From a virus (Duplodnaviria > Heunggongvirae > Uroviricota > Caudoviricetes), in IMG/VR virus record IMGVR_UViG_3300046820_000635: 64,000 nucleotides of DNA, one strand, 5' to 3'. This document shows, piece by piece, positions 42,797 through 60,172 of the stretch. A program made the translations under genes and the position numbers. The first letter of the stretch is position 1; the number at the start of each line of letters is the position of its first letter. Below the pieces are notes generated by a model, which was not told the origin of the DNA, did not search any database, and worked only from the letters and a program-made list of their open reading frames with translations.

Positions 42797-42803
42797 ATGA
42801 ATA

Positions 42804-42839: not shown

Positions 42840-42878
42840 AATAGCTCAACAACACTTTGTATTTTAAAGGCTCAAACA

Positions 42879-43955
42879 ATGTCTTACTTTCTGAAATCAG
42901 GCAACACTTTTAAGGTTTCTAACAAGGCCGCAATGGATCTGCATGATAAATTGCCAGTCGGCACTTACACTGTAGGTTTCGATAAAATGTCTGGTACGTT
43001 TTATCTAGAGCAAATCGAATCGTTCGAGTTGTCCGGCAAAATCTACGGTAATGCTACACGCCATGCAGATCGTATCCTACGTACATTCTTGTCACGTCCC
43101 AACGCTACTGGTGTAATGCTTACAGGCGAAAAGGGTTCTGGTAAGACATTGCTTACTAAGAAAATCGCAGTCGATGCGGCGGCACAAGATATCCCTACTA
43201 TCGTTATTAATCAGCCTTGGGCAGGTGAAGGCTTCAATGCGTTCATGCAAATGATTGATCAACCTACTGTGATTATCTTTGATGAGTTCGAGAAAGTCTA
43301 CGATCGCGAAACGCAAGAACAGATGTTGACATTACTTGACGGTGTTTACCCAAGCAAGAAACTGTTCATGTTGACCTGTAACGACAAGTGGCGTGTTGAC
43401 TCTCATATGCGTAACCGTCCAGGTCGTATCTTTTATATGATCGACTTCAAGGGCTTGGATGCAGAGTTCATTCGTGAGTACTGCATGGATAACTTGAACG
43501 CTAAAGAGTTTATCGAGAAAATTTGTCAGATTGCTGCTCTGTTCAGCGAGTTCAACTTCGACATGCTGAAAGCAATGGTTGAAGAAATGAATCGTTACAA
43601 CGAGTCTCCAACTGATGTACTGAAGCTGTTGAACGCTAAACCAGAGTTCAGCGATGAGTCTAAGTACAAGGTCGAACTGCAAATCGACGGTATCGAGATC
43701 GACGGCGAAAAAGTTGAACAAACCGAATGGCACGGTAATCCGTTAACAAAAGGTGTTCACATCGACTACAAGGTCTTCGAGAAAGACGACGATGGAGAAG
43801 AAGACTGGAACTGGGAAGGTGTGCGTTTTACCGCGCAAGATCTCAAGAAAGTTGATTCTACACACGGTAAGTTCATCTTTATGAATGAAACTGGCGCACG
43901 TTTGGTCCTGACCAAAGTCAAGGAAAAGACCTACTATCACTACGATGCACTGTGA
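42879..43955 (+). CDS. AAA+ ATPase
   Basis: Walker A LTGEKGSGKTLL; Walker B VIIFDEFEK. Confidence 0.65.
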   Translation: MSYFLKSGNTFKVSNKAAMDLHDKLPVGTYTVGFDKMSGTFYLEQIESFELSGKIYGNATRHADRILRTFLSRPNATGVMLTGEKGSGKTLLTKKIAVDAAAQDIPTIVINQPWAGEGFNAFMQMIDQPTVIIFDEFEKVYDRETQEQMLTLLDGVYPSKKLFMLTCNDKWRVDSHMRNRPGRIFYMIDFKGLDAEFIREYCMDNLNAKEFIEKICQIAALFSEFNFDMLKAMVEEMNRYNESPTDVLKLLNAKPEFSDESKYKVELQIDGIEIDGEKVEQTEWHGNPLTKGVHIDYKVFEKDDDGEEDWNWEGVRFTAQDLKKVDSTHGKFIFMNETGARLVLTKVKEKTYYHYDAL

Positions 43956-43981
43956 TCAGTCTCATGTAGATAAATATCTAC

Positions 43982-44281
43982 ATGAAAATCAGTGAAGTAT
44001 TAACAGAACTAACGTTCCATGGCAGCAAGTGTACCAAGGACTGTAGCGGACACAGTGCAGGGTATGCTTGGGCCATGCAACACAAAAGTTCTGCAGGGTG
44101 TAACTCTACTAGCCCGAGTTTCAACAAAGGCTGCGAAATAGCAGCTGATCAGCAGAAAACCGGTGTAGTTCGTCGTCCTAAGATACGTGATGTTCGTGGA
44201 AAGTTTGCTCCTAAACCAGTAGCAAAACCAGCAGTAAAGCCCGCACCTACTACACCAATTAAGCCTGTAGCACCAAGATAG
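43982..44281 (+). CDS. hypothetical Cys-rich, Pro/Lys-tailed protein (ends in TAG)
   Basis: 99 aa. C-terminus KPVAKPAVKPAPTTPIKPVAPR. Amber stop. Confidence 0.4.
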   Translation: MKISEVLTELTFHGSKCTKDCSGHSAGYAWAMQHKSSAGCNSTSPSFNKGCEIAADQQKTGVVRRPKIRDVRGKFAPKPVAKPAVKPAPTTPIKPVAPR

Positions 44282-44284
44282 ATC

Positions 44285-44312
44285 TTGACAAATCCTGTTA
44301 AGACTATATACT
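44285..44312 (+). promoter_or_regulatory. Promoter TTGACA-N16-TATACT
   Basis: Upstream of the 44343/44376 gene. Confidence 0.5.
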
Positions 44313-44375
44313 AAACAATAGACATTAACAAAGGAGATTAACATGTCGTAGATTGAATATGCTTGCAAGGACGTA

Positions 44376-44930
44376 GTGTTCCATTTTAACAAAAAACACT
44401 TAGAAGATCAGACCATTCCAATGTGGGTCATTAAAACACATGGAGAAAGTTTTTACGTACATCACGTAAGTTGCGAATTACCTTGGAGCACCAAGGAAAC
44501 ACCGGACAATTCGCATACTAAAGGTAGCATCAAAGTTAAAGATTGTTTATTAACAATCAATGACGACAACGAAGCTGCTATTTCCAAACTCACTATTTTT
44601 GATAAAGTTCGTCTGCGTAATCAGCGACTGGGTATCACTCGCGTTATGTGGAGTAACGGACACATGCCCGACATTCTTAAAAACGAAGGTATCAAGCACA
44701 GCCCTTTTAAAACTATTCACGGTGCCTGTTCCACTGCCTACACTGTTTGTGATTTGTTAGACAAACAGCAGGTAACCTTGCTTGCGTTAAAGTACAGCAA
44801 TAAGTTTCGTATCCTTATGCCCAACGAAACACAATATCGTGCCTATGACGATAAGAAACTATGGGAAAAGTTGCAACGTGATTATGACACTGCGGAGTAC
44901 GACGATGAAGATGAAGATTCCGATGAATAA
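44376..44930 (+). CDS. hypothetical protein (possible amber-containing alternative start at 44343)
   Basis: GTG at 44376 sits 4 nt after an AAGGA RBS. Alternatively, ATG at 44343 sits 7 nt after a perfect AAGGAG, but its codon 3 is TAG in frame. Confidence 0.5.
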   Translation: MFHFNKKHLEDQTIPMWVIKTHGESFYVHHVSCELPWSTKETPDNSHTKGSIKVKDCLLTINDDNEAAISKLTIFDKVRLRNQRLGITRVMWSNGHMPDILKNEGIKHSPFKTIHGACSTAYTVCDLLDKQQVTLLALKYSNKFRILMPNETQYRAYDDKKLWEKLQRDYDTAEYDDEDEDSDE

Positions 44931-45072
44931 GATTATTGATTTTATCAATGACATTAAACGGCTCAATATTCGCCATAAGCCGTTTAGTGCTTGGGTTCCT
45001 CACGGATACTACGAGATTGAACTTTATCCAAATCCAAACAACGATCTGTTGTATCTAAAATACTGTACTTGA
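44923..45072 (+). CDS. small protein (49 aa) ending ...DLLYLKYCT, related to the downstream paralog family
   Basis: ATGA-type coupling. C-terminus resembles the family motif. Confidence 0.35.
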   Translation: MNKIIDFINDIKRLNIRHKPFSAWVPHGYYEIELYPNPNNDLLYLKYCT

Positions 45073-45123
45073 CTTTGCTTGGATTTGGTGCTATACTTTA
45101 TCTAAAGCTGAAGAAAGGTTAGT

Positions 45124-45309
45124 ATGCTGTTGATCACTATCGTTATTGGTTTTGTTCTTGTCTTTATGAGTGGAGTACATTTTTGTGCCTACAAAGTAGA
45201 CAAGTTGGAAGGCCGGGCACGAGCTACTAACTCTCTCATGTGGAGTCTGTTGTCTGGAATCATTGGACTCTACCATATTATTGCTCTTATAGGAATGTCT
45301 GCAAAATGA
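45124..45309 (+). CDS. small membrane protein
   Basis: 61 aa, two helices. Confidence 0.35.
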   Translation: MLLITIVIGFVLVFMSGVHFCAYKVDKLEGRARATNSLMWSLLSGIIGLYHIIALIGMSAK

Positions 45310-45830
45310 TTACATTGAAACAATGGATGGAAGTTGTTGAGTATCGTGTTACCGAAGGTAGCGAATACTACTGGAAGTGCTACGGATATGACGCTTATGC
45401 GTTAGATTCTTGGAACGGTGACAATGAAGGTCACAGCTTTACAGTTATTTTTGATACCAAAACTCAAGTGGTCTACGAAGTGCAGGCACACGACTATAAA
45501 AATAATCGTGCCTATCGCATGATTAATCCAGAGTTCATAGAGGCTAATCGTACAGAAGCTGAACAGAAAAATGTAAGTCGTACAGAAGCTTGGGAAAATA
45601 CTTCCTATGTCGATCTAGATCTAGAAGAAGACTTTTTAGAAAAAGCAAAGGCCATTGCCAATGGTGAAGATTACGATACTCGAGTGCGTATTCCTCTCGA
45701 CTTCACTGACGAAGAGCTGTTAACCTACATGACTATGGCTCATGAACGTGACATGACATTCAACGCATTTATCGAAGAAGCATTGCGACATGCTATTGAC
45801 AAATATAAACTGACTGAAAACAATGAATAA
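45306..45830 (+). CDS. hypothetical protein
   Basis: Start MITLKQW by ATGA coupling. Confidence 0.45.
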   Translation: MITLKQWMEVVEYRVTEGSEYYWKCYGYDAYALDSWNGDNEGHSFTVIFDTKTQVVYEVQAHDYKNNRAYRMINPEFIEANRTEAEQKNVSRTEAWENTSYVDLDLEEDFLEKAKAIANGEDYDTRVRIPLDFTDEELLTYMTMAHERDMTFNAFIEEALRHAIDKYKLTENNE

Positions 45831-46146
45831 GCAAAAGTTCTTTGACGAGATCAAAGGTATTCAGAGAATCGTCATTAATGACTGCTACGGTGGCTTTGGC
45901 CTGAGCAGTCGTGCTGAAACTGAATATAAGAAACTTGCTGGTATTCCTGCAGATGATCAATGGAGTCACTATGATATTCCCCGTGACGATCCTTATCTTG
46001 TTAAGGTAGTAAGAGAGTTGGGCATGGCAGCAAATGGTGCTCATGCTAATCTTAAGATCGTTGAAGTGCCCGGGGATGTCCTGTGGGATATTGCAGAGTA
46101 CGATGGTGTAGAATGGGTTGCTGAAAAGCATCGCACATGGTCATGA
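45823..46146 (+). CDS. hypothetical protein ending ...HRTWS (tggtcatga junction, like the paralog family)
   Basis: 107 aa. Confidence 0.45.
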   Translation: MNKQKFFDEIKGIQRIVINDCYGGFGLSSRAETEYKKLAGIPADDQWSHYDIPRDDPYLVKVVRELGMAANGAHANLKIVEVPGDVLWDIAEYDGVEWVAEKHRTWS

Positions 46147-46340
46147 AAGTAGAACCCACAAGCTATCCCGGTTGGTCAGACCATCCTACTTATCTTGTTC
46201 GCACATTCAAAGACTACGAAGAAGTTTGTATGTGGATGTACAAAAATCAAGTAGAACATTTCTTGTTAAGTTCTGGATCCAACGGGTACACGTTTCAAGT
46301 TAGAGGTAAGAAGGAATGGTTTGAACTAAAATGGGGTTAA
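46143..46340 (+). CDS. paralog-family small protein 1 (C-term ...FELKWG)
   Basis: ATGA coupling. C-terminal family motif. Confidence 0.5.
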   Translation: MKVEPTSYPGWSDHPTYLVRTFKDYEEVCMWMYKNQVEHFLLSSGSNGYTFQVRGKKEWFELKWG

Positions 46341-46630
46341 TAGCAGTAAAAGGTGGTTGGGTAGCTATGCGTACAACATCAGTTAATCATTGGCAGTTTT
46401 ATGACGGAGTAACTCCGATTAATCCAGGTAATATATTTGGAGAGATAGTTCCGCCACGTGGATGGACCTGTTGGGTATATCCCGAAAACGATCAAGCATT
46501 TGAGGATTGGATGGCTACAAACTGTCCTACAGCAGAATGTACACATCGTTTTAACAGTGGAGATCCTATGTATACTGTTAATATTACAGACGACAAAGAG
46601 GCAACTATGTTTCAGCTGAAGTGGCTATGA
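46331..46630 (+). CDS. paralog-family small protein 2 (…DDKEATMFQLKWL)
   Basis: C-terminal E.DA..F.LKW motif. Confidence 0.5.
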   Translation: MGLIAVKGGWVAMRTTSVNHWQFYDGVTPINPGNIFGEIVPPRGWTCWVYPENDQAFEDWMATNCPTAECTHRFNSGDPMYTVNITDDKEATMFQLKWL

Positions 46631-46881
46631 AACCAATCATCCTTTCGAAACCTCAGTGGTATTCACTCAAGGAAAAGGTTAACCAAGATTATCCTCCTAG
46701 TGTAAGTCTTGTTCGAGAGAAGATGAAACGTGTGCTAGGCTTTACTCCTAGATTGCACGAAACGTGGGATGCACGTACAGGCTATAACATAGAAATGCAC
46801 TTAGATTTTTTCGACGATCAAAAACGAACAATGTTTCTTTTAAAGTATAGTGAATATGTCTCACAAAATCGCAACACTTGA
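46627..46881 (+). CDS. paralog-family small protein 3 (…DDQKRTMFLLKYS…)
   Basis: ATGA coupling. Motif present, with an 11-aa extension after it. Confidence 0.5.
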   Translation: MKPIILSKPQWYSLKEKVNQDYPPSVSLVREKMKRVLGFTPRLHETWDARTGYNIEMHLDFFDDQKRTMFLLKYSEYVSQNRNT

Positions 46882-47089
46882 CGAAATAATGTCCACTCGT
46901 GTTAAACAACAGTGGATGTATCGTGTTGACGTTACTGTCAACTCTGCAGAGATGGATAAGATGACTGCCTGGTGTGAAACCAATGCTAGAGGAGCATGGC
47001 GAGTTAATACTAAATTTATTGAATATTTTCAGTTTGAAAAAGACAGTGATGCTATGATGTTTATGTTAAAGTTTGGCGGTTCTCAATGA
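46850..47089 (+). CDS. paralog-family small protein 4 (…EKDSDAMMFMLKFGGSQ)
   Basis: C-terminal motif. Confidence 0.5.
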   Translation: MNMSHKIATLDEIMSTRVKQQWMYRVDVTVNSAEMDKMTAWCETNARGAWRVNTKFIEYFQFEKDSDAMMFMLKFGGSQ

Positions 47090-47448
47090 AACCCTGCATC
47101 TGGTATCATACCGCTGATAAAAATCCGGGCAGTAGTGGATTTTATCTCAGCCTTCGAGGTTGGGGTATTGCTGGTAAAGCAGACTACGATAGCGACTATG
47201 GTTATCTCTACTACGATAAAAAAAGAAATCAATGGAGAGAATACGACTCCATTAACAGTCACAGTGCTATTGTATATTACTGGACTGAGGCAGATCCGGG
47301 CAAATGGGTGGACAACGATCCTCCGGTAACTCATCGTAAGAGCATAACCACTGAGGCAAATGCTTCACTGAAGAGTGCTTGGGAAAATGTTGAAAAAGCA
47401 GTTGAACAATATAATCTAATTAAGGCACTATCAAATGATGTTGAATAA
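47086..47448 (+). CDS. array gene 5, no C-terminal motif
   Basis: 120 aa, W-rich, ATGA-coupled. Confidence 0.4.
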   Translation: MKPCIWYHTADKNPGSSGFYLSLRGWGIAGKADYDSDYGYLYYDKKRNQWREYDSINSHSAIVYYWTEADPGKWVDNDPPVTHRKSITTEANASLKSAWENVEKAVEQYNLIKALSNDVE

Positions 47449-47872
47449 TCTAACCGATAAAGAACTTATCAATCACGTTATCAAGTTTGATAATGACCCT
47501 ATTCGTATCCGTCTTGCTACGGCGAACGAAAGAACTACGGGAGCTATCTGGGACGATCTAGTTGATGTGGGTATGGACGAAACCTACTGCACGTTTACCA
47601 GCGAATGGGGTAGTAATATGCACGTTGGGCGTTACATTCAACATCTTCGCGAAGAGCTTGAAATTCGTGATGATGAGCTTCATAACCTACGCGAAGAGCT
47701 TGAAGAACAAAAAGCTCGCACTATTGCTGATTTGATTAACGAACTTAATCAACAGATTACTACAGAACGTTACATAGCAAAAGAAGCTCGTATGGATCTA
47801 GACAAAGCACGTCAAGAAGCAGCCGATGCCAAAGAAAAACTTAAAATGTGGAATCACTTGCGGACACCGTGA
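47435..47872 (+). CDS. array gene 6, coiled-coil protein, no motif
   Basis: 145 aa. Confidence 0.4.
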   Translation: MMLNNLTDKELINHVIKFDNDPIRIRLATANERTTGAIWDDLVDVGMDETYCTFTSEWGSNMHVGRYIQHLREELEIRDDELHNLREELEEQKARTIADLINELNQQITTERYIAKEARMDLDKARQEAADAKEKLKMWNHLRTP

Positions 47873-48129
47873 TGGAAATCTTTAACAGAGAGCAAGACGG
47901 ATATCCGGCTACAGCTGATCCTAAGGCGGTTAAAAGCTCGTCTGCTTTCTGGTTGCACCTAAGGTGGGTGGGCAGTGACGGAGTGAGCCGCTACAAGATC
48001 GAAGCCAATCAGGAAGTAATAGATTGGTTAACACGATCTGACCCTAATCGTAAGAATTGGTGGCCCATTAACGGCAAGATAAATGTCAACGAAGTGTTGT
48101 ATTTGCCTCTTGTGCTAAAGTTCAAATGA
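47848..48129 (+). CDS. array gene 7 (…LPLVLKFK)
   Basis: Weak motif. Confidence 0.4.
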   Translation: MESLADTVMEIFNREQDGYPATADPKAVKSSSAFWLHLRWVGSDGVSRYKIEANQEVIDWLTRSDPNRKNWWPINGKINVNEVLYLPLVLKFK

Positions 48130-48146
48130 CTGTATAATTCTTTCCT

Positions 48147-48488
48147 ATGCAACTTCAACCCTGGCAACAAGACATGTTAACAAAACTAGACGGCGTTAAA
48201 CCCAGTGAGCTGATGGTTATTAGTTCTGGTCGTCAGATAGGGAAGAGTTACTTAAACGCCTTTATGAAAGAATTGTATTACATGGCAACACCTTACCGAT
48301 ACATCAGCGAAGCAACGGTGGACGGAGAGAAGTGGTACACAGTTACGGGTCAGAAACCCGTATGTGCATGGATTCGTACACAGGATAATAAGTTCTGGCA
48401 CGAACACATCGACAGCACTTGGCACATTAGTTACAATACATTTGACATCCACGAAAAGATTTACACAATGTTGGGGATGAAGTTCTAA
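48147..48488 (+). CDS. array gene 8 (…TMLGMKF)
   Basis: 113 aa, weak motif. Confidence 0.4.
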   Translation: MQLQPWQQDMLTKLDGVKPSELMVISSGRQIGKSYLNAFMKELYYMATPYRYISEATVDGEKWYTVTGQKPVCAWIRTQDNKFWHEHIDSTWHISYNTFDIHEKIYTMLGMKF

Positions 48489-48733
48489 TGGTAACTACTC
48501 GACCTTATCGTAAAACTAACCCTCGTTCAATCCGTGGTGCTCGTAAACAGGGCTGGCATATTGTTAAGGTGCCTGGAAACACTATGGAACGATTTAACAC
48601 CAGTTGGCTAGGACTGGTAATGTGGACTACACATAAAACTCGTGGAAACTTTGTTAACAACTTTGTTCTAAGAGAGTTTGCCTTTGAGACTATTGAAGAT
48701 GCTAGTTGGTTTACTATGAAATGGTGCATATGA
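48488..48733 (+). CDS. paralog-family small protein 9 (…TIEDASWFTMKWCI)
   Basis: TAATG coupling, motif present. Confidence 0.5.
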   Translation: MVTTRPYRKTNPRSIRGARKQGWHIVKVPGNTMERFNTSWLGLVMWTTHKTRGNFVNNFVLREFAFETIEDASWFTMKWCI

Positions 48734-48999
48734 AAAGACTCATTCATAATAACATGACTGTTAGTGAGCAGTTTGCTCACATGAAGCAGTTTGAGGAAGT
48801 AACTGATCAAGCATGGCGTGTTCACGCACCTGTTGGATCCTACAGCAATGCTGATCTAAAACGTGATTTTGTTGAAGAAAGATTTGGCATTAGATGTAAA
48901 GTACTAATAACAGATTCTGTTCTTCATCAAGGTCGACTAGTTGAACCTAGGGTCGTAGACGAAAAGAAATGTTTATTTTATTTGATTAAAAGCCAATGA
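48730..48999 (+). CDS. array gene 10 (…LFYLIKSQ)
   Basis: ATGA coupling. Confidence 0.45.
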   Translation: MKRLIHNNMTVSEQFAHMKQFEEVTDQAWRVHAPVGSYSNADLKRDFVEERFGIRCKVLITDSVLHQGRLVEPRVVDEKKCLFYLIKSQ

Positions 49000-49295
49000 C
49001 AAAAATAGTTCGAACCATTGATCGTCGTAATGCTTTATATGGCAAATACAAGTATCAGGTTAAATCTGGTGCTATTGTTGGCGGAGCAGCCGAACCTAGA
49101 AAATGGTGCCGAGAAAAATGGGGGCCTCCAATACAATGGGTTGAACATAAAATCAGCGAAACCAGTTGGCAGTGTTGGAATGAAAAGAATCCGCGCTGGA
49201 CGGAAGTTAAGCGCCCAGGATTTAGTTCTCCTTTCATCTACATTCGTGATGAAGCTGATGCTGTAATGTTCGGACTTGTTTGGTCCACAAAATGA
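48996..49295 (+). CDS. paralog-family small protein 11 (…RDEADAVMFGLVWSTK)
   Basis: Motif present. Confidence 0.5.
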   Translation: MTKIVRTIDRRNALYGKYKYQVKSGAIVGGAAEPRKWCREKWGPPIQWVEHKISETSWQCWNEKNPRWTEVKRPGFSSPFIYIRDEADAVMFGLVWSTK

Positions 49296-49495
49296 CCAGT
49301 GCAAAGTTTTGGTGTAAACATTTTGTAGCTTTACCACACCTTGAAGTCGGTGTACGTCGAGAAGCTGCCGAATGGGCATTATCAAGATTCGGCTCACAGC
49401 AAGTTGATATATTTCATAATAACCCTACAGGACGACCGGGCTTTTACTTCGAACACGAAAAAGATGCTATACTGTTTGCACTAAGATGGAGTTAA
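49292..49495 (+). CDS. paralog-family small protein 12 (…FEHEKDAILFALRWS)
   Basis: ATGA coupling, canonical motif. Confidence 0.55.
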   Translation: MTSAKFWCKHFVALPHLEVGVRREAAEWALSRFGSQQVDIFHNNPTGRPGFYFEHEKDAILFALRWS

Positions 49496-49499
49496 TGCT

Positions 49500-49754
49500 G
49501 TGTGGACCACGCCTAGAGTTGTAAACAAGATCGAAATCGGTTACGCACCGGAATATGATCAACCTTATTGGGTTGAACTAAATCTCCGTGGCTCACAGAC
49601 ATATCTCCAATACGAAGAGGTTCATCGCTGGGTTAACGAAAAGTTTGGCGAAAAAACAGCAGCTTGGAATAATCCACGTTGGAGTGCCAGTAATCGCAAA
49701 TATTGGTTTAAGTATGAAAAAGATCGAACACTTTTTGTATTGAGGTGGGTATGA
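49500..49754 (+). CDS. paralog-family small protein 13 (…YEKDRTLFVLRWV)
   Basis: GTG start. Motif present. Confidence 0.5.
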   Translation: MWTTPRVVNKIEIGYAPEYDQPYWVELNLRGSQTYLQYEEVHRWVNEKFGEKTAAWNNPRWSASNRKYWFKYEKDRTLFVLRWV

Positions 49755-49963
49755 CAGCACAATACAGCCGCAGCCAAGAGCTTGTGCATCGTGTGGAAGT
49801 GCCACATTCAGGTGGATGGATTTGGGGTAAAGATCAGAGATTCGAATGGTGCGAACGGCACTGTCAAGACAACTATCGTGGCGCCATGTTTCGTCGAGAT
49901 CGAACTGTATGGCATTTTAAATCCCAGCAGGATGCTCTATTGTTTGCGTTGAAGTGGTCATGA
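49751..49963 (+). CDS. paralog-family small protein 14 (…SQQDALLFALKWS)
   Basis: ATGA coupling. Confidence 0.55.
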   Translation: MTAQYSRSQELVHRVEVPHSGGWIWGKDQRFEWCERHCQDNYRGAMFRRDRTVWHFKSQQDALLFALKWS

Positions 49964-50322
49964 AACAAGACGATATACAAAGAACAATCAATATGCTCAG
50001 GCATACTATTCCTGTGAGCATAGCACAGTCCATTGTAGGTGTACAACCAATAGATGCTGGCTCTTTCTTTGCTCCCCACATTCCAAAAGTTACATCTAAA
50101 TCGAAATATCAATTCAGCCGTGCTAAATGGCACACAGTTGATATCGGCGATGGTGTCTGGCGTCTAAGCCGTGAGTATAACGAAATCATCAAATGGTGTA
50201 CTGAACATTTTGGAAAACATCCAAACAAACCAGATGCATGGAGTCGTTGGTGGGTTGGTTTAGGAGTTATTAACTTCCGCGACGAAAAAGATTTTGTGTT
50301 TTATCAGTTGAAGTGGTCATGA
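49960..50322 (+). CDS. paralog-family small protein 15 (…RDEKDFVFYQLKWS)
   Basis: ATGA coupling. Confidence 0.55.
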   Translation: MKQDDIQRTINMLRHTIPVSIAQSIVGVQPIDAGSFFAPHIPKVTSKSKYQFSRAKWHTVDIGDGVWRLSREYNEIIKWCTEHFGKHPNKPDAWSRWWVGLGVINFRDEKDFVFYQLKWS

Positions 50323-50555
50323 GGGTAGAGTTTTATCAAGGTGTGCCCGAAGGTTGTACTGAATGGCTAAACAAACATGTAGGCAAAGGTAATATAACTG
50401 GGTTTGTTGACGATGACGATTATGCTTGGTTTTATGAGCGTATTAAGAAGCCTGTTCGTCTGGAAACAGTTTATGATGACCCGTGGCGATATGTACCCAC
50501 TATCACAGTGAAAGATGAAAAGAAAGCAATATTGTTTGTTATGAGGTGGTCATGA
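50319..50555 (+). CDS. paralog-family small protein 16 (…KDEKKAILFVMRWS)
   Basis: ATGA coupling; GAGGTGGTCATGA junction. Confidence 0.55.
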   Translation: MRVEFYQGVPEGCTEWLNKHVGKGNITGFVDDDDYAWFYERIKKPVRLETVYDDPWRYVPTITVKDEKKAILFVMRWS

Positions 50556-50773
50556 GAGTAGATATAAAACCGCAGTGGAAGAAACTAGCAAACTGGTATT
50601 GGGATAATGCCGGTGGCTACGAAGGCGTTGGCATGAGTATCTGGGACATGTTACAACGCGACTACGGTGCTTTTAAAGTGTTTAACATTAACAGTGTAAG
50701 AGACGATCGTAAAATGTGGGTTCGATTTCCTGATGAAAAAATGTATATGTTGTTTTTATTGAGGTGGTCATGA
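50552..50773 (+). CDS. paralog-family small protein 17 (…PDEKMYMLFLLRWS)
   Basis: ATGA coupling; GAGGTGGTCATGA junction. Confidence 0.55.
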   Translation: MRVDIKPQWKKLANWYWDNAGGYEGVGMSIWDMLQRDYGAFKVFNINSVRDDRKMWVRFPDEKMYMLFLLRWS

Positions 50774-50994
50774 ATCACTTGCCTAGAAAAGGACAGTACG
50801 AACTGTTTAGTCATGGTATGAAAACACATTGCTTCGACGATTTAGATCTCGAAGCTGTTAAATCAACTCCGGAAATGTTCGAATGGTTGCGTAGTCAAGA
50901 TCCGGAACTGTGTCGTCCAATGGACGATACAAATGTTGCATTTTATCTCGATCCTAAACTTTATTTGTTATGGAAGTTAAAATGGGCCTCGTAA
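50770..50994 (+). CDS. paralog-family small protein 18 (…LYLLWKLKWAS)
   Basis: ATGA coupling. Confidence 0.5.
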   Translation: MNHLPRKGQYELFSHGMKTHCFDDLDLEAVKSTPEMFEWLRSQDPELCRPMDDTNVAFYLDPKLYLLWKLKWAS

Positions 50995-51338
50995 AAATAC
51001 AGGGAAAGAAAACATTTTATGATGGACAAACAGTCTACATCATTGGCGGTATAACTCCTCACAAATTTCACAAATTTTATAAAGACACAGAGAGTGATGC
51101 GTTTGTTATGAACTGGTGTGATCAAGAACGTGCGCATCATGCGCTGCGTAGGGCGATCAGGCATCATCTTCCTGGGATAACTGAGTGGTTGTCTACAAAC
51201 AATGCCGAAACTACATGTTGGGTTGATCCGGATATTTTTAGATCAATAACTACTGATATGTTTACTGACTATCCTTGGGGTATTGGTTTTAAGAAAGACG
51301 ATCCGTTAGAATCTTGGTTTGTTATGAGGTGGTCATGA
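50970..51338 (+). CDS. paralog-family small protein 19 (…DDPLESWFVMRWS)
   Basis: 122 aa. Confidence 0.5.
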   Translation: MEVKMGLVKIQGKKTFYDGQTVYIIGGITPHKFHKFYKDTESDAFVMNWCDQERAHHALRRAIRHHLPGITEWLSTNNAETTCWVDPDIFRSITTDMFTDYPWGIGFKKDDPLESWFVMRWS

Positions 51339-51577
51339 AACCTTGTGAACTGCAACCAATATTAGCAAGAGCTGTAGAAACCGTTGGACCGAAAAATTAC
51401 TGGGAACTTCCGCCGGATTCACTAATAATCACTGGCAATCCAAAATATGATGCACAACTTCATTATGTGTTAGTTGAGTTCGGAGTAGATGTAAAGTTAG
51501 ATAAGAATCACGGCATGGAAGATTATCATATAGTCGATGATCAAAAGTTCATGATGTTTTTGTTGAGGTGGTTATGA
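51335..51577 (+). CDS. paralog-family small protein 20 (…DDQKFMMFLLRWL)
   Basis: ATGA coupling. Confidence 0.55.
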   Translation: MKPCELQPILARAVETVGPKNYWELPPDSLIITGNPKYDAQLHYVLVEFGVDVKLDKNHGMEDYHIVDDQKFMMFLLRWL

Positions 51578-51846
51578 AAGTCAAAAACACATTAAGCATA
51601 GATAAAGTCTGGTATACCTTGCCGGACAAGATGGAGAACTTTACTGGGAGCAGGGTAGACGATGTAGAGGCACGGCGGTATATTCGAAATAACTTTCCCC
51701 AGCAACAATACACTGGTATAGACAAGTTTGACAATGTAATAATCTGGTGCCACGCACACTTGGGCAACAACTTTGTTTGGGACTGGGAAACTTTTTATTT
51801 CAAGACCGAGCAAGATCGGGTGTTCTTTTTGTTGAAGTGGTCATGA
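51574..51846 (+). CDS. paralog-family small protein 21 (…KTEQDRVFFLLKWS)
   Basis: ATGA coupling. Confidence 0.55.
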   Translation: MKVKNTLSIDKVWYTLPDKMENFTGSRVDDVEARRYIRNNFPQQQYTGIDKFDNVIIWCHAHLGNNFVWDWETFYFKTEQDRVFFLLKWS

Positions 51847-52043
51847 TCAAAAAGCAATACCGTAGAGGCCAAAGAGGTTATTTTAATAACTTTATCATAT
51901 CTCACGATGGCAATGAGATAATAGAAGAAAAGTTAAAAGCCTTTAATGCCACTCTGGGCAAAAGTAAAAATAAACATGCTATAATGAATGTTAAATGGCA
52001 CGATAAAAATCTGTATGTAATGTTTGTATTGAGATGGACATGA
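51843..52043 (+). CDS. paralog-family small protein 22 (…HDKNLYVMFVLRWT)
   Basis: ATGA coupling. Confidence 0.55.
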   Translation: MIKKQYRRGQRGYFNNFIISHDGNEIIEEKLKAFNATLGKSKNKHAIMNVKWHDKNLYVMFVLRWT

Positions 52044-52246
52044 AATATTGGAACAAGGATAAAAAGGTTCGGCAATCTCATTGGTACAAAGTTTCAATGA
52101 AAGATCGACAAGGATGGAACTATCATACAATCAAACGTGAGTTGCAACTAACACACAGTAGCGGCAAGTTCTATTTGTATTACGGTAGCACGGCTATTTG
52201 GTTTGAGCGTGAACAAGATGCCATGTGGTGGATATTAAAGTCATGA
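52040..52246 (+). CDS. paralog-family small protein 23 (…EREQDAMWWILKS)
   Basis: ATGA coupling. Confidence 0.5.
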   Translation: MKYWNKDKKVRQSHWYKVSMKDRQGWNYHTIKRELQLTHSSGKFYLYYGSTAIWFEREQDAMWWILKS

Positions 52247-52446
52247 AAAAATACGGTCTTGTAGTCGAACATTGGGATTGGAAATACAAAACGGACGTGC
52301 GACTATGGTTGCAGGAGAACTTCGGCCCGGGTGGCGTAGGTGGTCCTAACTGCAATAAGCGATGGGGCGAAGAATATGATTACGGTCTTGAAAATCTCTA
52401 CATGGACGAAGATATTTTTGTAATGTATAACTTGAGGTGGTCATAA
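52243..52446 (+). CDS. paralog-family small protein 24 (…DEDIFVMYNLRWS)
   Basis: ATGA coupling. Confidence 0.55.
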   Translation: MKKYGLVVEHWDWKYKTDVRLWLQENFGPGGVGGPNCNKRWGEEYDYGLENLYMDEDIFVMYNLRWS

Positions 52447-52766
52447 TGGCAATCAAACCTAACGATTGTGTGATTAGAATTGAAGATCTAATTATTGGTA
52501 CAAAGGAAGTTGTTGACAGTTGGAATGGTCGTATGGTAGAAGTTGATCGGTATGAGCAGTATTGGGAAAATTTTCAAGAACACATAAATGAAGTTTCAAA
52601 AAGTATCACGCAAACAACGTGGAATCAATCTCCATATGACATAGCATTTGAGCAGGAACTTAATAAGCATGGCGGATCACTCAAGCAAACTAAAAATTGG
52701 AATAATCGATATATTAAGTTTAAGAGCCATTCTCATCTAACAATGTTTGTATTGAGGTTTTCGTGA
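52446..52766 (+). CDS. paralog-family small protein 25 (…SHSHLTMFVLRFS)
   Basis: TAATG coupling. Confidence 0.5.
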   Translation: MAIKPNDCVIRIEDLIIGTKEVVDSWNGRMVEVDRYEQYWENFQEHINEVSKSITQTTWNQSPYDIAFEQELNKHGGSLKQTKNWNNRYIKFKSHSHLTMFVLRFS

Positions 52767-52954
52767 GTAATCCTTATAAGTATCGTGTAGAGTTTCGACG
52801 AACAGGGGATTGGTACGACAGTGGAGGCATGTGGTATCAAATCTCTTCTTGGTGTAATCGAACATTTGGTGCCGGTAACTGGGATTATTTTTACGATGGA
52901 TTTGTTTTTGAAAAGGAAAGCGACTATATGTTGTTTAAACTAAAATGGCTGTAA
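52763..52954 (+). CDS. paralog-family small protein 26 (…EKESDYMLFKLKWL)
   Basis: GTGA overlap start. Confidence 0.5.
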   Translation: MSNPYKYRVEFRRTGDWYDSGGMWYQISSWCNRTFGAGNWDYFYDGFVFEKESDYMLFKLKWL

Positions 52955-53277
52955 TGCATATAAACAACACCGGCCGTCCTATTCGATATAGAACATGGAT
53001 GACTCGCGCTTCTCTAGTTACTTCAAATCATTTTGTGGTACTTAAAAGTCACAACATTCCGGCGAGATATTTGTTAGATTCGGATGTGCTAACAGCACCT
53101 AATGGATCTCACTACAGGTATTCTAATAGCGACCCTAGGGCCGAGTTTGAAACCACTTGCGACGAACAAGATGTTGTGTTACAATTACTATACGGTAAAG
53201 ACCTTATTCTACTAATGGAAGAAGTAGTCTTGCCTAACACATATTCTGTCTGTACACTTTCTACAATGAACATCTAA
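52945..53277 (+). CDS. array gene 27, no motif
   Basis: 110 aa. Confidence 0.4.
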   Translation: MAVMHINNTGRPIRYRTWMTRASLVTSNHFVVLKSHNIPARYLLDSDVLTAPNGSHYRYSNSDPRAEFETTCDEQDVVLQLLYGKDLILLMEEVVLPNTYSVCTLSTMNI

Positions 53278-53561
53278 TGACCCGATACTCGTTTAATCCA
53301 ATTGAACAAAACTTTCAAGAATGGGATACTGAACAGCGGCGACGACGAAACGAGTATTGGAAAAAGTTACACATGGCAAGGGCTGATTTCTTCAACAGCA
53401 CTGTTGAAAAAGAACATCCTACTACTTCTTCATTTTACTACTATATGCAGAATAAATGGGGTGTAAAAATGATGCTTGACGATAATCAGAATATTACAAG
53501 AGAATATAAAATCGTAGATGAATCAAAGTACCTAATGTTTTTAATGAAATATGGCAGTTAG
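53277..53561 (+). CDS. paralog-family small protein 28 (…DESKYLMFLMKYGS)
   Basis: TAATGA coupling. Confidence 0.5.
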   Translation: MTRYSFNPIEQNFQEWDTEQRRRRNEYWKKLHMARADFFNSTVEKEHPTTSSFYYYMQNKWGVKMMLDDNQNITREYKIVDESKYLMFLMKYGS

Positions 53562-53928
53562 AACTCTAAAGCGTAAAGTACTGATCCGTGAGTACGATTA
53601 CAAAAAAGTTAAAGCCCAGGCATTTACGTCGGTGGGTATTTCCACATTATATGATCGTGCTAGTTTTACTCCAGTGTCGTTTAGCGATATTGAAAAGCAT
53701 CAGATGCTGGAGATTTTAAAAGGCAAAACAGAAACTACCTGGCGAGACTTAGAACAGCCCGCACTTGCCCTATACTCTGTAAGAGATTATCTATATGATG
53801 TTCGTTATTATGATTGGCGAGTAACTTTTGACGAAGAAGGATATCTATGTGTACAGGCAAGAAAGAATACACCATTAAGTCGGATTGGTTGGGGGATCTT
53901 CGAAAAGGATCTCTTGGCGAGAATATGA
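53551..53928 (+). CDS. array gene 29, no motif
   Basis: 125 aa. Confidence 0.4.
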   Translation: MAVRTLKRKVLIREYDYKKVKAQAFTSVGISTLYDRASFTPVSFSDIEKHQMLEILKGKTETTWRDLEQPALALYSVRDYLYDVRYYDWRVTFDEEGYLCVQARKNTPLSRIGWGIFEKDLLARI

Positions 53929-54200
53929 CAGCTACACAAATATTAGAACAGAATTACATTGATGAAGCTGTCAAGCGCTCAGCTAAAGAACTTCACGACG
54001 AAATAGATTTTAGCATATTGGCAGATTTATATAAAAAGAATGGATGGACTGAAGTTGATTTTAATCCGTATCGACGGCATGAAGCTATTAAAGAATGGCT
54101 GAAGAATAATTGCAAAGGACATCGTATAAGTCGAGGTCGCCGCTTTTTGTTTCAAGATCAAAGTGATGCTATTAATTTTGTACTAAGATGGTCAGAATAA
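53925..54200 (+). CDS. paralog-family small protein 30 (…QDQSDAINFVLRWSE)
   Basis: ATGA coupling. Confidence 0.5.
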   Translation: MTATQILEQNYIDEAVKRSAKELHDEIDFSILADLYKKNGWTEVDFNPYRRHEAIKEWLKNNCKGHRISRGRRFLFQDQSDAINFVLRWSE

Positions 54201-54589
54201 AAGATTACATTGTAGACAAGTATCTCACTTGGCGTACAGGCAAGGACAAACTTCAGCGTGATTGGGAAGCCTGGTATGATGTAAATGTTGTCTATCGTGC
54301 CAGTACTATCGAAAATATGTTTATGCACTTTAAACATATCATCATTGTAGACTCTAATAGATTTATGGTAGAAGATCCGTTTGTGTGGAGGCCGTGTGAG
54401 GATGCTCGACAATATTTTTATCCTGCTCGCAGATTAGGAGAAAATTGTGTTTGGCGTTTTGAGCGAGTTAGAAAAGATCAATGGGACGGTCGTTGGCACA
54501 TCGACGAAATGGGTGGGAGCGATTATGTATTTGTAGCAACAAATTGTGAAAAAGATGCTATAATGATATCGTTAAAATATGCAGGTTGA
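54188..54589 (+). CDS. paralog-family small protein 31 (…CEKDAIMISLKYAG)
   Basis: 133 aa. Confidence 0.5.
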   Translation: MVRIKDYIVDKYLTWRTGKDKLQRDWEAWYDVNVVYRASTIENMFMHFKHIIIVDSNRFMVEDPFVWRPCEDARQYFYPARRLGENCVWRFERVRKDQWDGRWHIDEMGGSDYVFVATNCEKDAIMISLKYAG

Positions 54590-54595
54590 CAATAA

Positions 54596-54835
54596 ATGGC
54601 ACTTATCAATCACATTGACCAAGATCATGATTATAGGGTAGCGATCCCTTGGAATAAAGTTTGGACGAACTTAGCTGCTAGAGAACAGCAGTGGAATGAT
54701 GTGGCTGCTTATGCTCTCGAACATTTTGGTTTGCCCGGAGAAAGATACACCTGTCGTCCTACTACAAAAAATTTAGAGTTTTGGTTTCGTGCTGAGCTAG
54801 ATGCCCTTATGTTTCAAATACGATGGAGTTCATAA
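54596..54835 (+). CDS. paralog-family small protein 32 (…RAELDALMFQIRWSS)
   Basis: Motif present. Confidence 0.5.
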   Translation: MALINHIDQDHDYRVAIPWNKVWTNLAAREQQWNDVAAYALEHFGLPGERYTCRPTTKNLEFWFRAELDALMFQIRWSS

Positions 54836-55047
54836 TGGGACAGAAAATCTTTAAGGAAAAAGGTGGCTTGTCCTTTCGCAGTGACGAACGTGATATCGCT
54901 GTTCCTTATTCTATGAGACAGGCAGTTTACGAATGGTGTGGAGCAAATAAGATTACTGTTGAGTATCAGGGCACGTTAGGTGGAACTGATGTTTGGCGTG
55001 TTAGAGATGAACAACAACGTGCTTGGTTTACTATGAGGTGGTCATGA
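54835..55047 (+). CDS. paralog-family small protein 33 (…RDEQQRAWFTMRWS)
   Basis: TAATG coupling. Confidence 0.5.
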   Translation: MGQKIFKEKGGLSFRSDERDIAVPYSMRQAVYEWCGANKITVEYQGTLGGTDVWRVRDEQQRAWFTMRWS

Positions 55048-55271
55048 TTCAAGCCAGCGTTAGATTAAATCAGCCCTTGGCTCCAAATCGATTCATTGAT
55101 GAAAGTCCTATCAATATATGGTTGTTGGCTAATATAGGTCAGTGTGCCAAGTTTCGAGACTCGATAACCAAAGAACATCCGTGGCATGTTGATCATCGAT
55201 ATGGATATCTTGTGTACAGTTTTGCTCGAGAGCAGGATGCTGTTATGTTTGCATTAAGATGGAGTAAATGA
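55044..55271 (+). CDS. paralog-family small protein 34 (…AREQDAVMFALRWSK)
   Basis: ATGA coupling. Confidence 0.55.
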   Translation: MIQASVRLNQPLAPNRFIDESPINIWLLANIGQCAKFRDSITKEHPWHVDHRYGYLVYSFAREQDAVMFALRWSK

Positions 55272-55570
55272 TGGAATATTTTTATGGCGGTGGTGGAAAT
55301 AATCGCCCGGACTTTACCTACAGATTCTTAGTTACTAGAGTCACAGAAGAAATGTTCCACTGGTGTGAACGCTATCCACTAACAGGTCCCTTTGAACGCT
55401 GGCACGTAATCTATAACTACAGGGATCACGGATACAGAAAAGGCAAACCGGAAGCAGATATCGTTGAGATTCCGCTTATACAGTTCGAAAACAAACAGGC
55501 TGCTTTTATGTTTAGTCTTGCTTTCAGTGAATACATAGTAGAAGACAAAACTTTTAGCTTTGCCAAATGA
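55268..55570 (+). CDS. paralog-family small protein 35 (…ENKQAAFMFSLAFSEY…)
   Basis: ATGA coupling. Motif present, followed by a 14-aa extension. Confidence 0.5.
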   Translation: MMEYFYGGGGNNRPDFTYRFLVTRVTEEMFHWCERYPLTGPFERWHVIYNYRDHGYRKGKPEADIVEIPLIQFENKQAAFMFSLAFSEYIVEDKTFSFAK

Positions 55571-55905
55571 AAATAGTCTGGGGAAGAAGTTTAGGATGGA
55601 ACATAGAACTGCACAAGGCACGTATGAGTTATAACGGCGCGGCAAAATGGAATCCCAGTCCGGGAAAAGTATACATGGAATACACTATTATTACAGACGG
55701 ATGCGATTGTTATCCTTGGCACGAAGTGTTCATTTGGTGGCCGGTTAAAACTATTACCGGAAAACGAGTTTGGGGTACCAAACTCTATAAGCGTAAAGTT
55801 TGGGTAGTGTGGGGCACAGGTTTTCACATGGAACCTGAAACACAGTACGCAACATTATTTGAGATGATAGAGCATGGCGATACTAAGAAAATATCAGTGG
55901 CCTAA
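55567..55905 (+). CDS. array gene 36, W-rich, no motif
   Basis: 112 aa. Confidence 0.4.
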   Translation: MKIVWGRSLGWNIELHKARMSYNGAAKWNPSPGKVYMEYTIITDGCDCYPWHEVFIWWPVKTITGKRVWGTKLYKRKVWVVWGTGFHMEPETQYATLFEMIEHGDTKKISVA

Positions 55906-56281
55906 TGTGCCTGACAGAACAGCAGACATCAATCAGATACTTGCTGACCAGTTCTTTGAGTATCACAATCCTTATACTCATAGACCTGTACGTAATAAGT
56001 ACAATGTTATCAAAGACGGGGAGACTCAAAGAGTGGAAGAATGTCGCGAAATGGTTGTACATGAATTTAAACTAGGTGATGTAGACGATCCGGATCTATA
56101 CGCTGCTCAACCGTTATATGAATGGCAGAGTACAGAGTTTGGTCAATGGGTTATGAAAAATGCGGCCGACACACCTACATGGCAGAGGTATGCAGACCCT
56201 ACGTCCTACGGTTACCAATATAGAATCACAGCAAAGTTTATGGGGCCTGCTCTAACTGAAATGCTGCTCAGGAAAGGTTAA
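55874..56281 (+). CDS. array gene 37, no motif
   Basis: 135 aa. Confidence 0.4.
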   Translation: MAILRKYQWPNVPDRTADINQILADQFFEYHNPYTHRPVRNKYNVIKDGETQRVEECREMVVHEFKLGDVDDPDLYAAQPLYEWQSTEFGQWVMKNAADTPTWQRYADPTSYGYQYRITAKFMGPALTEMLLRKG

Positions 56282-56532
56282 TGGGCGCAACAGTTCCTCG
56301 GATTACTGGAAACATTCGTCGACAGCCCCAACTTGTTGACGACAAACTATTAGAAGCATTAAAAGATTATCACATCGTTCGACTCTATTCCGATGCTGAT
56401 TATAACGATAAACTCACTTGGTGTTTGGAAAACTGCCAAAATAAGTTTAGAGATTTTAAAGAGTCAAATCAACGTGCTTGGTACTTTAAAGAAGAACAAG
56501 ATGCACTGATGTTTGCTATGAAATGGAGTTGA
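56281..56532 (+). CDS. paralog-family small protein 38 (…KEEQDALMFAMKWS)
   Basis: TAATG coupling. Canonical motif. Last array member. Confidence 0.55.
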   Translation: MGATVPRITGNIRRQPQLVDDKLLEALKDYHIVRLYSDADYNDKLTWCLENCQNKFRDFKESNQRAWYFKEEQDALMFAMKWS

Positions 56533-56588
56533 CCTTTTGGAATATAGATGCTATACTATATTTTTAATCAACTACTTTAAAGTCAATC

Positions 56589-58332: not shown

Positions 58333-58926
58333 ATGATAAGTAATAGTGAATCCATAGGAGCAAAAGTGAAGAAAATCGACGATTTCAACGCCGAGGATCG
58401 CATTAGTGTAAAACTGCTAGAGAATTCGATACATTTTCTATCAGGTGATATAGACGAAGAATCTATCGCATCATGTATCCGCTGGATAACCTACGAAAAC
58501 CTAACTCATAAAGAAGGTAAAACCTTAACTTTATATGTCAACAGCTCGGGCGGAGATCTGTATCAAGCATTTGCCCTTGTTGATATCATGCGTAACAGTG
58601 TACATCCTATAAGAACTATAGGCATCGGAAATGTTATGAGTGCCGCATTTCTAATTTTTGTCAGCGGTACTCGTGGGGAAAGATATATAGCTGAGAACAC
58701 AGGAATAATGTGTCATCAATACAGCGATAGTCCGGAAGGAAAACATCACGATCTCAGAGCCTCAATGAAAGAGGGCGAGAACTGCAATGCCAGGATGTTA
58801 GAAATATTAAAATCAGCAACCGGACTTGCTGCTTCAAAAATAAAAGCCAAACTACTACCGGCCAGCGATGTTTATATTACTGCTGCCGAGGCAATAGACT
58901 TGGGCGTAGCCGATTATATCTTATAA
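58333..58926 (+). CDS. clpP: ClpP-family serine peptidase (S14)
   Basis: LYVNSSGG (YINSPGG), GNVMSAAFL (GQAASMG, catalytic Ser), GIMCHQYS (MIHQP, catalytic His), ASDVYITAAEAIDLGVADYIL C-terminal helix. Confidence 0.7.
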   Translation: MISNSESIGAKVKKIDDFNAEDRISVKLLENSIHFLSGDIDEESIASCIRWITYENLTHKEGKTLTLYVNSSGGDLYQAFALVDIMRNSVHPIRTIGIGNVMSAAFLIFVSGTRGERYIAENTGIMCHQYSDSPEGKHHDLRASMKEGENCNARMLEILKSATGLAASKIKAKLLPASDVYITAAEAIDLGVADYIL

Positions 58927-60084: not shown

Positions 60085-60089
60085 TATAT

Positions 60090-60165: not shown

Positions 60166-60172
60166 AGTTTAT

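Follow-up and report, generated by a model that had tools for sequence, protein, structure and literature searches.

Expanded tandem families of small non-enzymatic domains, varying in copy number, are found in large DNA viruses, as in the 'genomic accordions' of poxviruses, and the internal proteins of phage T4 (IPI-III) come from a variable locus whose small products share a short N-terminal capsid-targeting peptide. In the hyperplastic regions of T4-type phages, PeSL (promoter-early stem-loop) cassettes mediate modular shuffling (PMC2839356, PMC4122927). In prokaryotic operons, termination-reinitiation coupling is known at gene overlaps of -4 (ATGA) and -1 (TAATG) (PMC10666635; review PMC12548453). 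Features of all these systems meet in a gene array on a 64,000-nucleotide (nt) stretch of DNA (the window) from the Caudoviricetes record IMGVR_UViG_3300046820_000635, where 38 consecutive + strand genes of 63-145 amino acids (aa) fill positions 46143-56532 at a coding density of 99.7%. We consider it likely that this array is one polycistronic unit, in which about 31 of the 38 genes belong to an old phage-specific family with a dual-coding tail, coupled translation and in-register recombination.

Like the termination-reinitiation operons, the array has -4 or -1 overlaps at 27 of its 37 junctions, a Shine-Dalgarno (SD) sequence inside the upstream 3' end and no intergenic space. Unlike in those operons, the conserved C-terminus of one family, found in hundreds of phage contigs, itself contains the SD, spacer and overlap, so that the coupling element moves together with the gene. 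With the PeSL regions the array shares clustering of small, non-essential same-strand genes without a known function and whole-gene insertions and deletions (indels) that, between close relatives, break at a short repeated element. PeSLs, however, are intergenic and consist of promoter and terminator, whereas the array lacks intergenic DNA as well as internal promoters and terminators; its repeat is made of coding sequence, SD and start overlap, and its genes are paralogs rather than unrelated ORFans. As in the accordions, many tandem paralogs of a small domain lie in an accessory region and vary in copy number between relatives, but here the copies are ancient and individually conserved, and the domain is unrelated to ankyrin, BTB and other expanded families. 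The T4 internal proteins are likewise variable, tandem, small accessory proteins with one short conserved terminal element in common; that of the array is a folded C-terminal domain, has no sequence similarity to theirs and shows no evidence of packaging. The locus appears to be of a known kind, in which small accessory genes of a large phage are clustered and coupled in translation, and what appear to be new are the family and the fusion of its C-terminus with a ribosome-binding site.

The protein family and its distribution

Twenty-three of the array proteins form a single BLASTP component through alignments of 40-50 aa. Two profile hidden Markov models (HMMs) place 27 members in the window at E<0.01 (23 of those at E<1e-7), all on the + strand and all within 46125-56529, and an HMM trained solely on 688 sequences of other phages retrieves 25 of the window members. 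Four further genes (48147-48488, 48730-48999, 50770-50994, and 54188-54589) are members via orthology to canonical-tailed proteins elsewhere, so that we put membership at about 31 of the 38 genes. An initial annotation, made from the nucleotides without database searches, had described a related gene family with about 29 motif-bearing genes among 38 tandemly packed, overlapping small open reading frames (ORFs). The packing, the paralogy (by BLASTP and HMM), and the approximate count all agree with the present results, as does the Trp-richness noted there (5.3% Trp in the family proteins of the array vs. 1.5% in the long ORFs of the window).

When L-[RK]-W-S and everything after it were deleted, 17 of 23 members still ranked first of 545 in a leave-one-out HMM search. 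Because homology persists without this tail, the family is not an SD artefact; the relatedness beyond an SD-imposed Arg-Trp dipeptide on which the initial annotation had made its family depend is therefore present. The conserved unit consists of a strand, a W-C-x-E-x-F-G helix that sits 30 residues upstream of the tail, a W-bearing loop, and the stretch F-x-F-(K/R)-x-E-x-D-A-x-x-F-x-L-(R/K)-W-x. Judged from these alignments, the conserved domain is about 55 aa long and C-terminal, larger than the C-terminal block recognised initially. A beta-alpha-beta-beta-alpha topology is common to two AlphaFold2 (AF2) models of different members built from different alignments, with predicted local distance difference test (pLDDT) scores of 72 and 90-95 in the domain. 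Four metagenomic proteins (P0150, P0153, P0163, and P0190) carry two tandem domain copies each, as if neighbouring array genes had fused once the stop/start junction between them was lost.

The initial annotation did not recognise the family, and curated resources likewise hold no match. Scans of 30 window members and 56 diverse members found no match to the domain in Pfam-A, PHROGs v4, NCBIfam 20, or PADLOC 2.0 (threshold E<1e-3 or family cutoff), the best E-values being 0.02-0.05, each for one member against an unrelated model. The family has no match in the PDB; three family queries gave no tblastn match, and the array gave no megablast match, among 50,697 GenBank phage records. The literature yielded no account of the family, nor of a dual-coding tail shared across a family, coverage of subscription journals being thin. 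By structure, the nearest neighbours are proteins without a name from 'uncultured Caudovirales phage'. On the other hand, a profile search of 1.84 billion representatives returned 1,754 clusters (50% identity) at E<1e-3, whose representatives are nearly all 45-150 aa long and have the domain at their very C-terminus. With up to about 30 copies per genome in hundreds of phage contigs, this is a very large family that current annotation does not see.

A set selected by the junction pattern comprises 600 family ORFs in 115 IMG/VR loci, with a single strand used per locus in 115 of 115 (a check made on these pattern-selected loci). Median spacing in the family arrays is 278 nt, with up to 21 genes per 12 kb. 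The junction pattern occurs in at least 120 IMG/VR contigs, frequently in several copies each. Bacterial and archaeal genomes totalling 596 Gb give 39 matches to it vs. roughly 70 expected by chance, and two of the 39 are real arrays, on small contigs of metagenome-assembled genomes (MAGs) that are probably phage. These are L155 (DLXM01000070.1), with 11 members in 6.4 kb, and L160 (JBDNIA010000391.1), with 5 members, both from Bacteroidota bins; they represent either mis-binned phage DNA or a hint of Bacteroidota hosts for some carriers. From these searches the family appears to be widespread, confined to phages, and undescribed. The HMM and the pattern TTY-NNN-YTG-AGG-TGG-TCA-TGA can serve as specific markers for such phage regions.

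Dual coding at the C-terminal tail

In its fullest form, TTG-AGG-TGG-NNA-TGA, the end of a family gene spells L-R-W-x-stop and at the same time an extended SD, GAGGUGGUC, placed 5 nt before the AUG that overlaps the stop. Where the basic codon is AGA, AAA, or CGA, its pair with TGG spells an in-frame ATG instead. GAGGUGGUC pairs with the 3' end of 16S rRNA at -14.1 kcal/mol through up to 9 pairs (a canonical 16S is assumed for all pairing energies), which exceeds any SD before the long ORFs of the window, where canonical AGGAGG/AAGGAG is used. Junctions with GAGGTGGTC reach -14.1 kcal/mol, those with GAAGTGGTC -7.5. At starts that follow family genes, anti-SD pairing averages -7.0 vs. -3.6 kcal/mol for random ATGs (p 9e-6). 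An SD within about 5-10 nt of the downstream start is present for a subset of junctions, about half being weak.

Of the 37 array junctions, 20 overlap by ATGA (-4), 7 by TAATG/TGATG (-1), and 7 over a longer stretch; the other 3 are gaps of 4-17 nt. The string GAGGTGGTCATGA, which the initial annotation had placed at many junctions, has 4 exact and 5 one-mismatch copies, every one at the end of a family gene, where 0.07 would be expected; it is real and far above expectation, though limited to 9 of the 37 junctions.

Codon choice also bears on dual coding. Of the 13 tail Arg positions in the window, 8 use AGG vs. a genome-wide background of 5.7% (p 1e-7), and the Leu before the tail Arg/Lys is TTG in 9 of 19 vs. 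19%. As the first external sample had been chosen by a DNA pattern, a second, codon-neutral sample was drawn with the peptide FRDExD[YA]xxF, which lies upstream of the tail and was back-translated without codon preference, yielding 438 unique genes from 53 loci. AGG encodes the tail Arg in 73% of these genes vs. 9% of their internal Arg codons (odds ratio 28, p 3e-112), the tail Leu is TTG in 60% vs. 24% (p 2e-33), and the final codon ends in A in 79% vs. 27%. Exactly one residue follows the Trp in 91%, and its identity varies (S, A, L, T, E, Q, or G). The stop lies within an ATGA overlap in 65% and in a TAATG-type overlap in 16%, so that 81% overlap a start. Selection on the protein alone cannot give rise to these regularities, which are those required if GAGG is to act as an SD, 5 nt away from an AUG that overlaps the stop. 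The initial proposal that protein motif and translation signal constrain each other thus extends to the family as a whole (p ~1e-112 for AGG and ~1e-33 for TTG against internal usage), and a dual-coding tail beyond this window is strongly supported by the codon statistics. The case is an unusually clean one of natural dual coding, in which these statistics separate nucleotide-level from protein-level selection.

Layout and turnover of the array, and competing explanations

Two related phages were compared with the window: L001, which is syntenic (369,613 bp, JGI), and the more distant L004 (288,938 bp). In addition, Logan contig L005 is 100% identical to window positions 47630-53831, and samples SRR35184831 and JGI 3300043530 hold this phage or one closely related to it. 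The features of the array and its flanks are as follows (E, HMM E-value).

45069..45097, +, sigma70-like promoter TTGACT-N17-(TG)-TATACT, a consensus match in the gap upstream of the operon
45306-45830 and 45823-46146, +, two leading non-family genes of the array unit, the second ending ...TWS with an ATGA overlap
46143..46340, +, weak family member, tail LKWG (E 3e-3; 1.7e-3 with the externally trained HMM), L001 ortholog 89% identical; its AAA-TGG codon pair makes the ATG of the next gene
46331..46630, +, family member, tail LKWL, ATGA overlap (E 3.7e-12)
46627..46881, +, family member with a C-terminal extension beyond LKY (E 4e-5)
46856..47089, +, family member, tail LKFGGSQ, ATGA overlap (E 6e-16)
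47086-47448, 47435-47872 (coiled-coil), and 47872-48129, +, three HMM-negative, non-family genes, the first two recurring beside arrays in other phages
48147..48488, +, divergent family member by orthology (E 0.13), N-terminal P-loop fragment (..SSGRQIGKS..), tail degenerated to GMKF where orthologs end ..LALRWS/..ALKWS
48488..48733, +, family member, tail MKWCI, ATGA overlap (E 9e-14)
48730..48999, +, family member by orthology, degenerated tail YLIKSQ where orthologs end FVLRWS/FVLKWT
48996..49295, +, family member, tail LVWSTK (E 7e-14)
49292..49495, +, family member, tail LRWS (CTA AGA TGG AGT TAA) (E 1e-15); left breakpoint of the 13-gene block missing in L001
49500..49754, +, family member, TTG AGG TGG GTA TGA (E 3e-19)
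49751..49963, +, family member, TTG AAG TGG TCA TGA (E 2e-18)
49960..50322, +, family member, KYQFSRAKW segment, N-terminal extension resembling a capsid protein (..IPVSIAQSIVGVQPI..) (E 2e-13; AF2 domain pLDDT 90-95)
50319..50555, +, family member, ATG AGG TGG TCA TGA, exact junction (E 1e-9)
50552..50773, +, family member, TTG AGG TGG TCA TGA, exact junction (E 8e-12)
50770..50994, +, family member by orthology, tail LKWAS (E 0.067); KLRWC/KMRWI tails in orthologs, of which one is HMM-positive
50982..51338, +, family member, exact junction (E 6e-10)
51335..51577, +, family member, TTG AGG TGG TTA TGA (E 9e-14)
51574..51846, +, family member, TTG AAG TGG TCA TGA (E 1e-14)
51843..52043, +, family member, TTG AGA TGG ACA TGA (E 3e-10)
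52040..52246, +, family member without the tail Trp (WWILKS) (E 7e-4; 4e-6 with the externally trained HMM)
52243..52446, +, family member, TTG AGG TGG TCA TAA-TG (E 1e-9); SD pairing -15.8 kcal/mol
52446..52766, +, family member, tail LRFS (E 3e-4); right breakpoint of the block missing in L001
52763..52954, +, family member, tail LKWL (E 6e-13)
52954..53277, +, non-family gene by HMM and orthology
53277..53561, +, family member, tail MKYGS (E 4e-11)
53551..53928, +, non-family gene by HMM and orthology
53925..54200, +, family member, tail LRWSE (E 2e-14); its AGA-TGG pair gives the only ATG available to the next gene (54188)
54188..54589, +, family member by orthology, tail LKYAG, 5 of 18 homologues HMM-positive; left breakpoint of the second block missing in L001
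54596..54835, +, family member, tail IRWSS (E 7e-15)
54835..55047, +, family member, exact junction (E 2e-15)
55044..55271, +, family member, tail LRWSK (E 4e-14)
55268..55570, +, family member with a C-terminal extension beyond LAF (E 2e-8)
55567-55905 and 55874-56281, +, two HMM-negative genes; the second may be a remote member, since some of its homologues end ..LKWS/..LKWG
56281..56532, +, final family member and the one with the best score, tail MKWS (AAA; without SD or downstream overlap) (E 6e-25; AF2 pLDDT 72)
56529..56557, +, sigma70-like promoter TTGACC-N17-(TG)-TATACT, a consensus match that overlaps the stop of the last family gene and marks the unit end

The initial annotation had also listed relatives outside the array. 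Of these, 61485-61697 is borderline (E 0.13-1.1), and 45823-46146 and 44923-45072 are not detected by the HMMs; orthologs of 45823-46146 are non-members as well.

The motif TTGAC-N17/18-TATACT has nine sites in the window, all on the + strand, where 0.13 would be expected (starts at 8723, 10348, 41314, 42811, 44285, 45069, 56529, 59309, and 59641), and probably represents the early promoter class of this phage. Between 45098 and 56528 there is no such site and no convincing + strand terminator, and no Rfam element was found. With one promoter on either side and none between, the array is most simply read as a single unit of about 11.4 kb transcribed by a host-type RNA polymerase, which, by analogy with host-type promoters in T4-type phages, would be expressed early.

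HMM-positive members number 27, 12, and 9 in the three related phages. Compared with L001, the window carries two additional blocks, at 49490-52743 (13 genes) and about 54588-55235 (3 genes), and at both indels the L001 junction is chimeric, joining the tail of the gene on the left to the start of the one on the right; in these two events, therefore, both breakpoints fall within the conserved junction motif. The coiled-coil gene 47435-47872 (145 aa) has its counterpart at another array position in L001 (8904-9335, 84% nt identity), which shows rearrangement as well as indels inside the array.

Between paralogs of the window, identity is 24-52% and covers part of the length. Each of the 27 members has a full-length relative in another phage that is closer (36-93% identity) than any window paralog, indicating an old repertoire in which each member is individually conserved. 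Amino-acid identity of window-L001 orthologs runs from 39% to 93%, and the ratio of nonsynonymous to synonymous substitution rates (dN/dS) is 0.05-0.33 where dS is unsaturated. By these measures the paralogs are to be regarded as old and under purifying selection, and differences between phages as mostly losses or transfers of whole units. The diversifying arsenal and the recent paralog expansion read from the locus at first are thus not supported, and the proposed comparison of dN/dS between N- and C-terminal halves, when run, gave no systematic difference.

In the reading that we favour, a single transcript would run from the promoter near 45.07 kb to the next one at 56.53 kb, in an accessory part of a T4-type phage of about 370 kb from an aquatic metagenome. 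Each member would combine a variable N-terminal part with a beta-alpha-beta-beta-alpha domain of about 55 aa ending in F-x-L-(R/K)-W-x. Each family gene would bring an initiation signal for whatever gene lies downstream. A ribosome ending one gene would re-initiate on the next, which would allow about 40 genes to be expressed from one promoter without intergenic space. Recombination between the shared unit ends of about 15-40 nt would delete or insert whole genes in register, hence the copy numbers of 9, 12, and 27. The products may be non-enzymatic binding modules made early in infection, each with its own conserved partner, that keep an aromatic/hydrophobic core while surfaces, charge, and N-termini differ. 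The tail design suggests how phages could run 40-gene operons without intergenic DNA and gain or lose genes in register, and the coupling element could serve compact synthetic operons.

Several points weigh against this reading. Lys variants of the tail show no preference for AAG over AAA (37 vs. 41), though AAG would pair better. Genes without an overlapping downstream ORF use AGG in 53% vs. 64% of coupled genes (n=30 uncoupled genes, p 0.32); as AGG persists there, part of the codon bias could have a non-SD origin such as junction homogenisation by recombination. A strong SD occurs at only about 9 of the 37 window junctions, and many of the others, several after family genes among them, have a weak one or none. 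Finally, coupling is deduced from nucleotides alone, the promoters are consensus matches only, and the assumed canonical 16S 3' end may not be that of the host.

That the junction is conserved chiefly because it serves recombination or undergoes gene conversion between units, in a PeSL-like shuffling with translation signals secondary, we regard as unlikely. Breakage of both window/L001 indels within the junction, the chimeric L001 junctions, the differing copy numbers, the AGG kept without downstream overlap, and the two-domain fusions P0150, P0153, P0163, and P0190 would all follow from it. Recombination, however, needs no 16S complementarity, no fixed 5-nt SD-AUG spacing, and no NNA-TGA, and the paralogs are so highly diverged that conversion tracts would be confined to about 15 nt. 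It is compatible with the coupled-translation explanation and not exclusive of it. Distinctly improbable is a tail kept purely for protein reasons (helix packing, or a degron for a phage ClpP) with an incidental likeness to an SD. The Trp is nearly invariant, the Arg/Lys alternation is conservative, and the absent AAG preference and the 53% AGG in 'uncoupled' genes fit such a constraint; a ClpP gene (58333-58926) lies nearby and ClpX-type genes adjoin some arrays. Protein selection nevertheless leaves unexplained the roughly 8-fold Arg-codon and 2.5-fold Leu-codon excess (p 1e-112 and 1e-33), as well as the single variable residue after Trp, its A-ending codon in 79%, and the ATGA in 65%.

A recent 'genomic accordion', with rapid amplification and diversification of one effector in an arms race, is very improbable. 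It would account for a copy number that is high and differs between relatives, but not for paralogs only 24-52% identical, closer full-length orthologs elsewhere for 27 of 27 members, or dN/dS of 0.05-0.33; moreover, the 13-gene block missing in L001 consists of mutually diverged genes, each with its own orthologs elsewhere, so that the L001 difference reflects loss or transfer and not de novo duplication. Scarcely credible, lastly, is that unrelated ORFs look alike only through the SD (AGG-TGG) before the next gene, for although the most conserved residues, R/K-W, do coincide with it, the 40-50 aa alignments, the tail-deleted ranking, the helix 30 residues upstream, and the confident common AF2 fold extend beyond it, and non-family genes of the operon overlap their neighbours without bearing the motif.

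N-terminal extensions and genomic setting

The family proteins are soluble, with isoelectric points of 4.7-10.9. Their conserved positions form an aromatic/hydrophobic core and a helix cap, with nothing pointing to a catalytic site. With low confidence, we see in them a small stable scaffold with variable surfaces and N-terminal extensions, i.e., binding modules. The clues on function are hints, limited to a sigma70-type (early-like) operon beside replication genes and to the chimeric N-termini. In other phages the arrays adjoin helicase, ligase, exonuclease, ribonucleotide reductase (RNR), and radical-SAM genes (replication/nucleotide metabolism), not structural genes.

Members of the widespread KYKFSRAKW... 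subfamily, which includes 49960-50322, are extended at the N-terminus by stretches similar to parts of essential phage proteins. A capsid-like segment, ..IP.L.AQ.I.GVQPM..G.iF, corresponding to the N-terminal region of the T4-type major capsid protein (MCP), is present in 49960-50322, P0164, P0200, P0178, P0181, and P0196. P0164 matches Pfam PF07068 (Gp23) at 29.1 bits over model positions 3-38 (gathering threshold 24.4), P0200 and P0178 match at E 4e-4, and the P0164 N-terminus also matches annotated MCP genes of 350-386-kb coliphages (33% identity, E 9e-3). The window member 49960-50322 scores 13.4 bits (E 0.051), under the gathering threshold of 24.4 for Gp23, and by these scores its extension is a degenerate capsid-protein-like fragment, not a capsid protein.

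A second fragment, with a P-loop, occurs in 17 proteins, 48147-48488 and 16 small ORFs (e.g., in L007, L105, L168, L172, L183, and L191), with the pattern ..YQ..l....GGF..GE....(A/S)GRQ(T/S)GKS... It gives sub-threshold DnaB_C matches in 4 of 10 proteins (E 0.03-0.19) and aligns weakly, at 43-47% identity over about 30 aa, with the Walker-A region of DnaB-type helicases from related loci; the P-loop gene has no tblastn match in the 50,697 GenBank phages. A terminase large subunit was considered as its source and rejected, as no terminase model matched at E<=1. Some proteins join the P-loop fragment with a capsid-like NLCKEI.LPM piece.

The capsid- and helicase-like fragments may be either functional mimics or recombination debris. 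It is possible, if quite unlikely, that the domain serves as a scaffold for display and that the array is a library of early decoys with differing N-terminal peptides, some of which would mimic the MCP 'IP.L.A..I.GVQPM' and replicative-helicase Walker-A segments. If true, host immune sensors, or factors of competing phages, that read those segments would be kept busy or blunted, and the dual-coding tail would let decoys enter or leave as ready-to-translate cassettes. The members with capsid or helicase fragments offer a concrete, testable route to function.

Elsewhere the window encodes RNR, Hsp70, a CHASE2-cyclase, NAMPT, an NMNAT-Nudix protein, heme oxygenase, a bilin reductase, superoxide dismutase (SOD), peroxiredoxin, and CsgG/F, together with a SegE-like endonuclease, ClpP, and a 20-tRNA array. 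Assignment to a T4-type phage would follow from this gene content and the capsid-like fragments, structural genes falling outside the window; a tblastn search with the AAA ATPase, meant to place the phage, matched promiscuously only. An auxiliary set unusual for a phage lies in long + strand ORFs upstream of the array, 14158-16041 and 24081-26135 among them: a full-length Hsp70/DnaK, a CHASE2-adenylate/guanylate cyclase, heme oxygenase, a ferredoxin-dependent bilin reductase, an Fe/Mn SOD, peroxiredoxin, and CsgG/CsgF curli-secretion homologues. About 17.8 kb of the window (~28020-45850; NAMPT, NMNAT-Nudix, and an AAA-ATPase) is absent at the syntenic position of L001, which has a Metallophos gene directly before its array.

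A tRNA gene with a CUA (amber-reading) anticodon lies at 33972-34046 and is called tRNA-Pyl by ARAGORN. It prompted consideration of amber-codon recoding, for which there is no evidence, as no in-frame TAG occurs inside the long ORFs; 33 long ORFs end in 21 TAA, 12 TGA, and 0 TAG. The 20 tRNA genes at 59999-63524 stand directly downstream of the ClpP-like gene. Within this array, the small ORF 61485-61697 has a family-like DSDKAMLFMRW segment (E 0.13 at best), and the tRNA genes include a tRNA-Ile(UAU) and a tRNA with an unassignable 2-base anticodon call (62682-62768).

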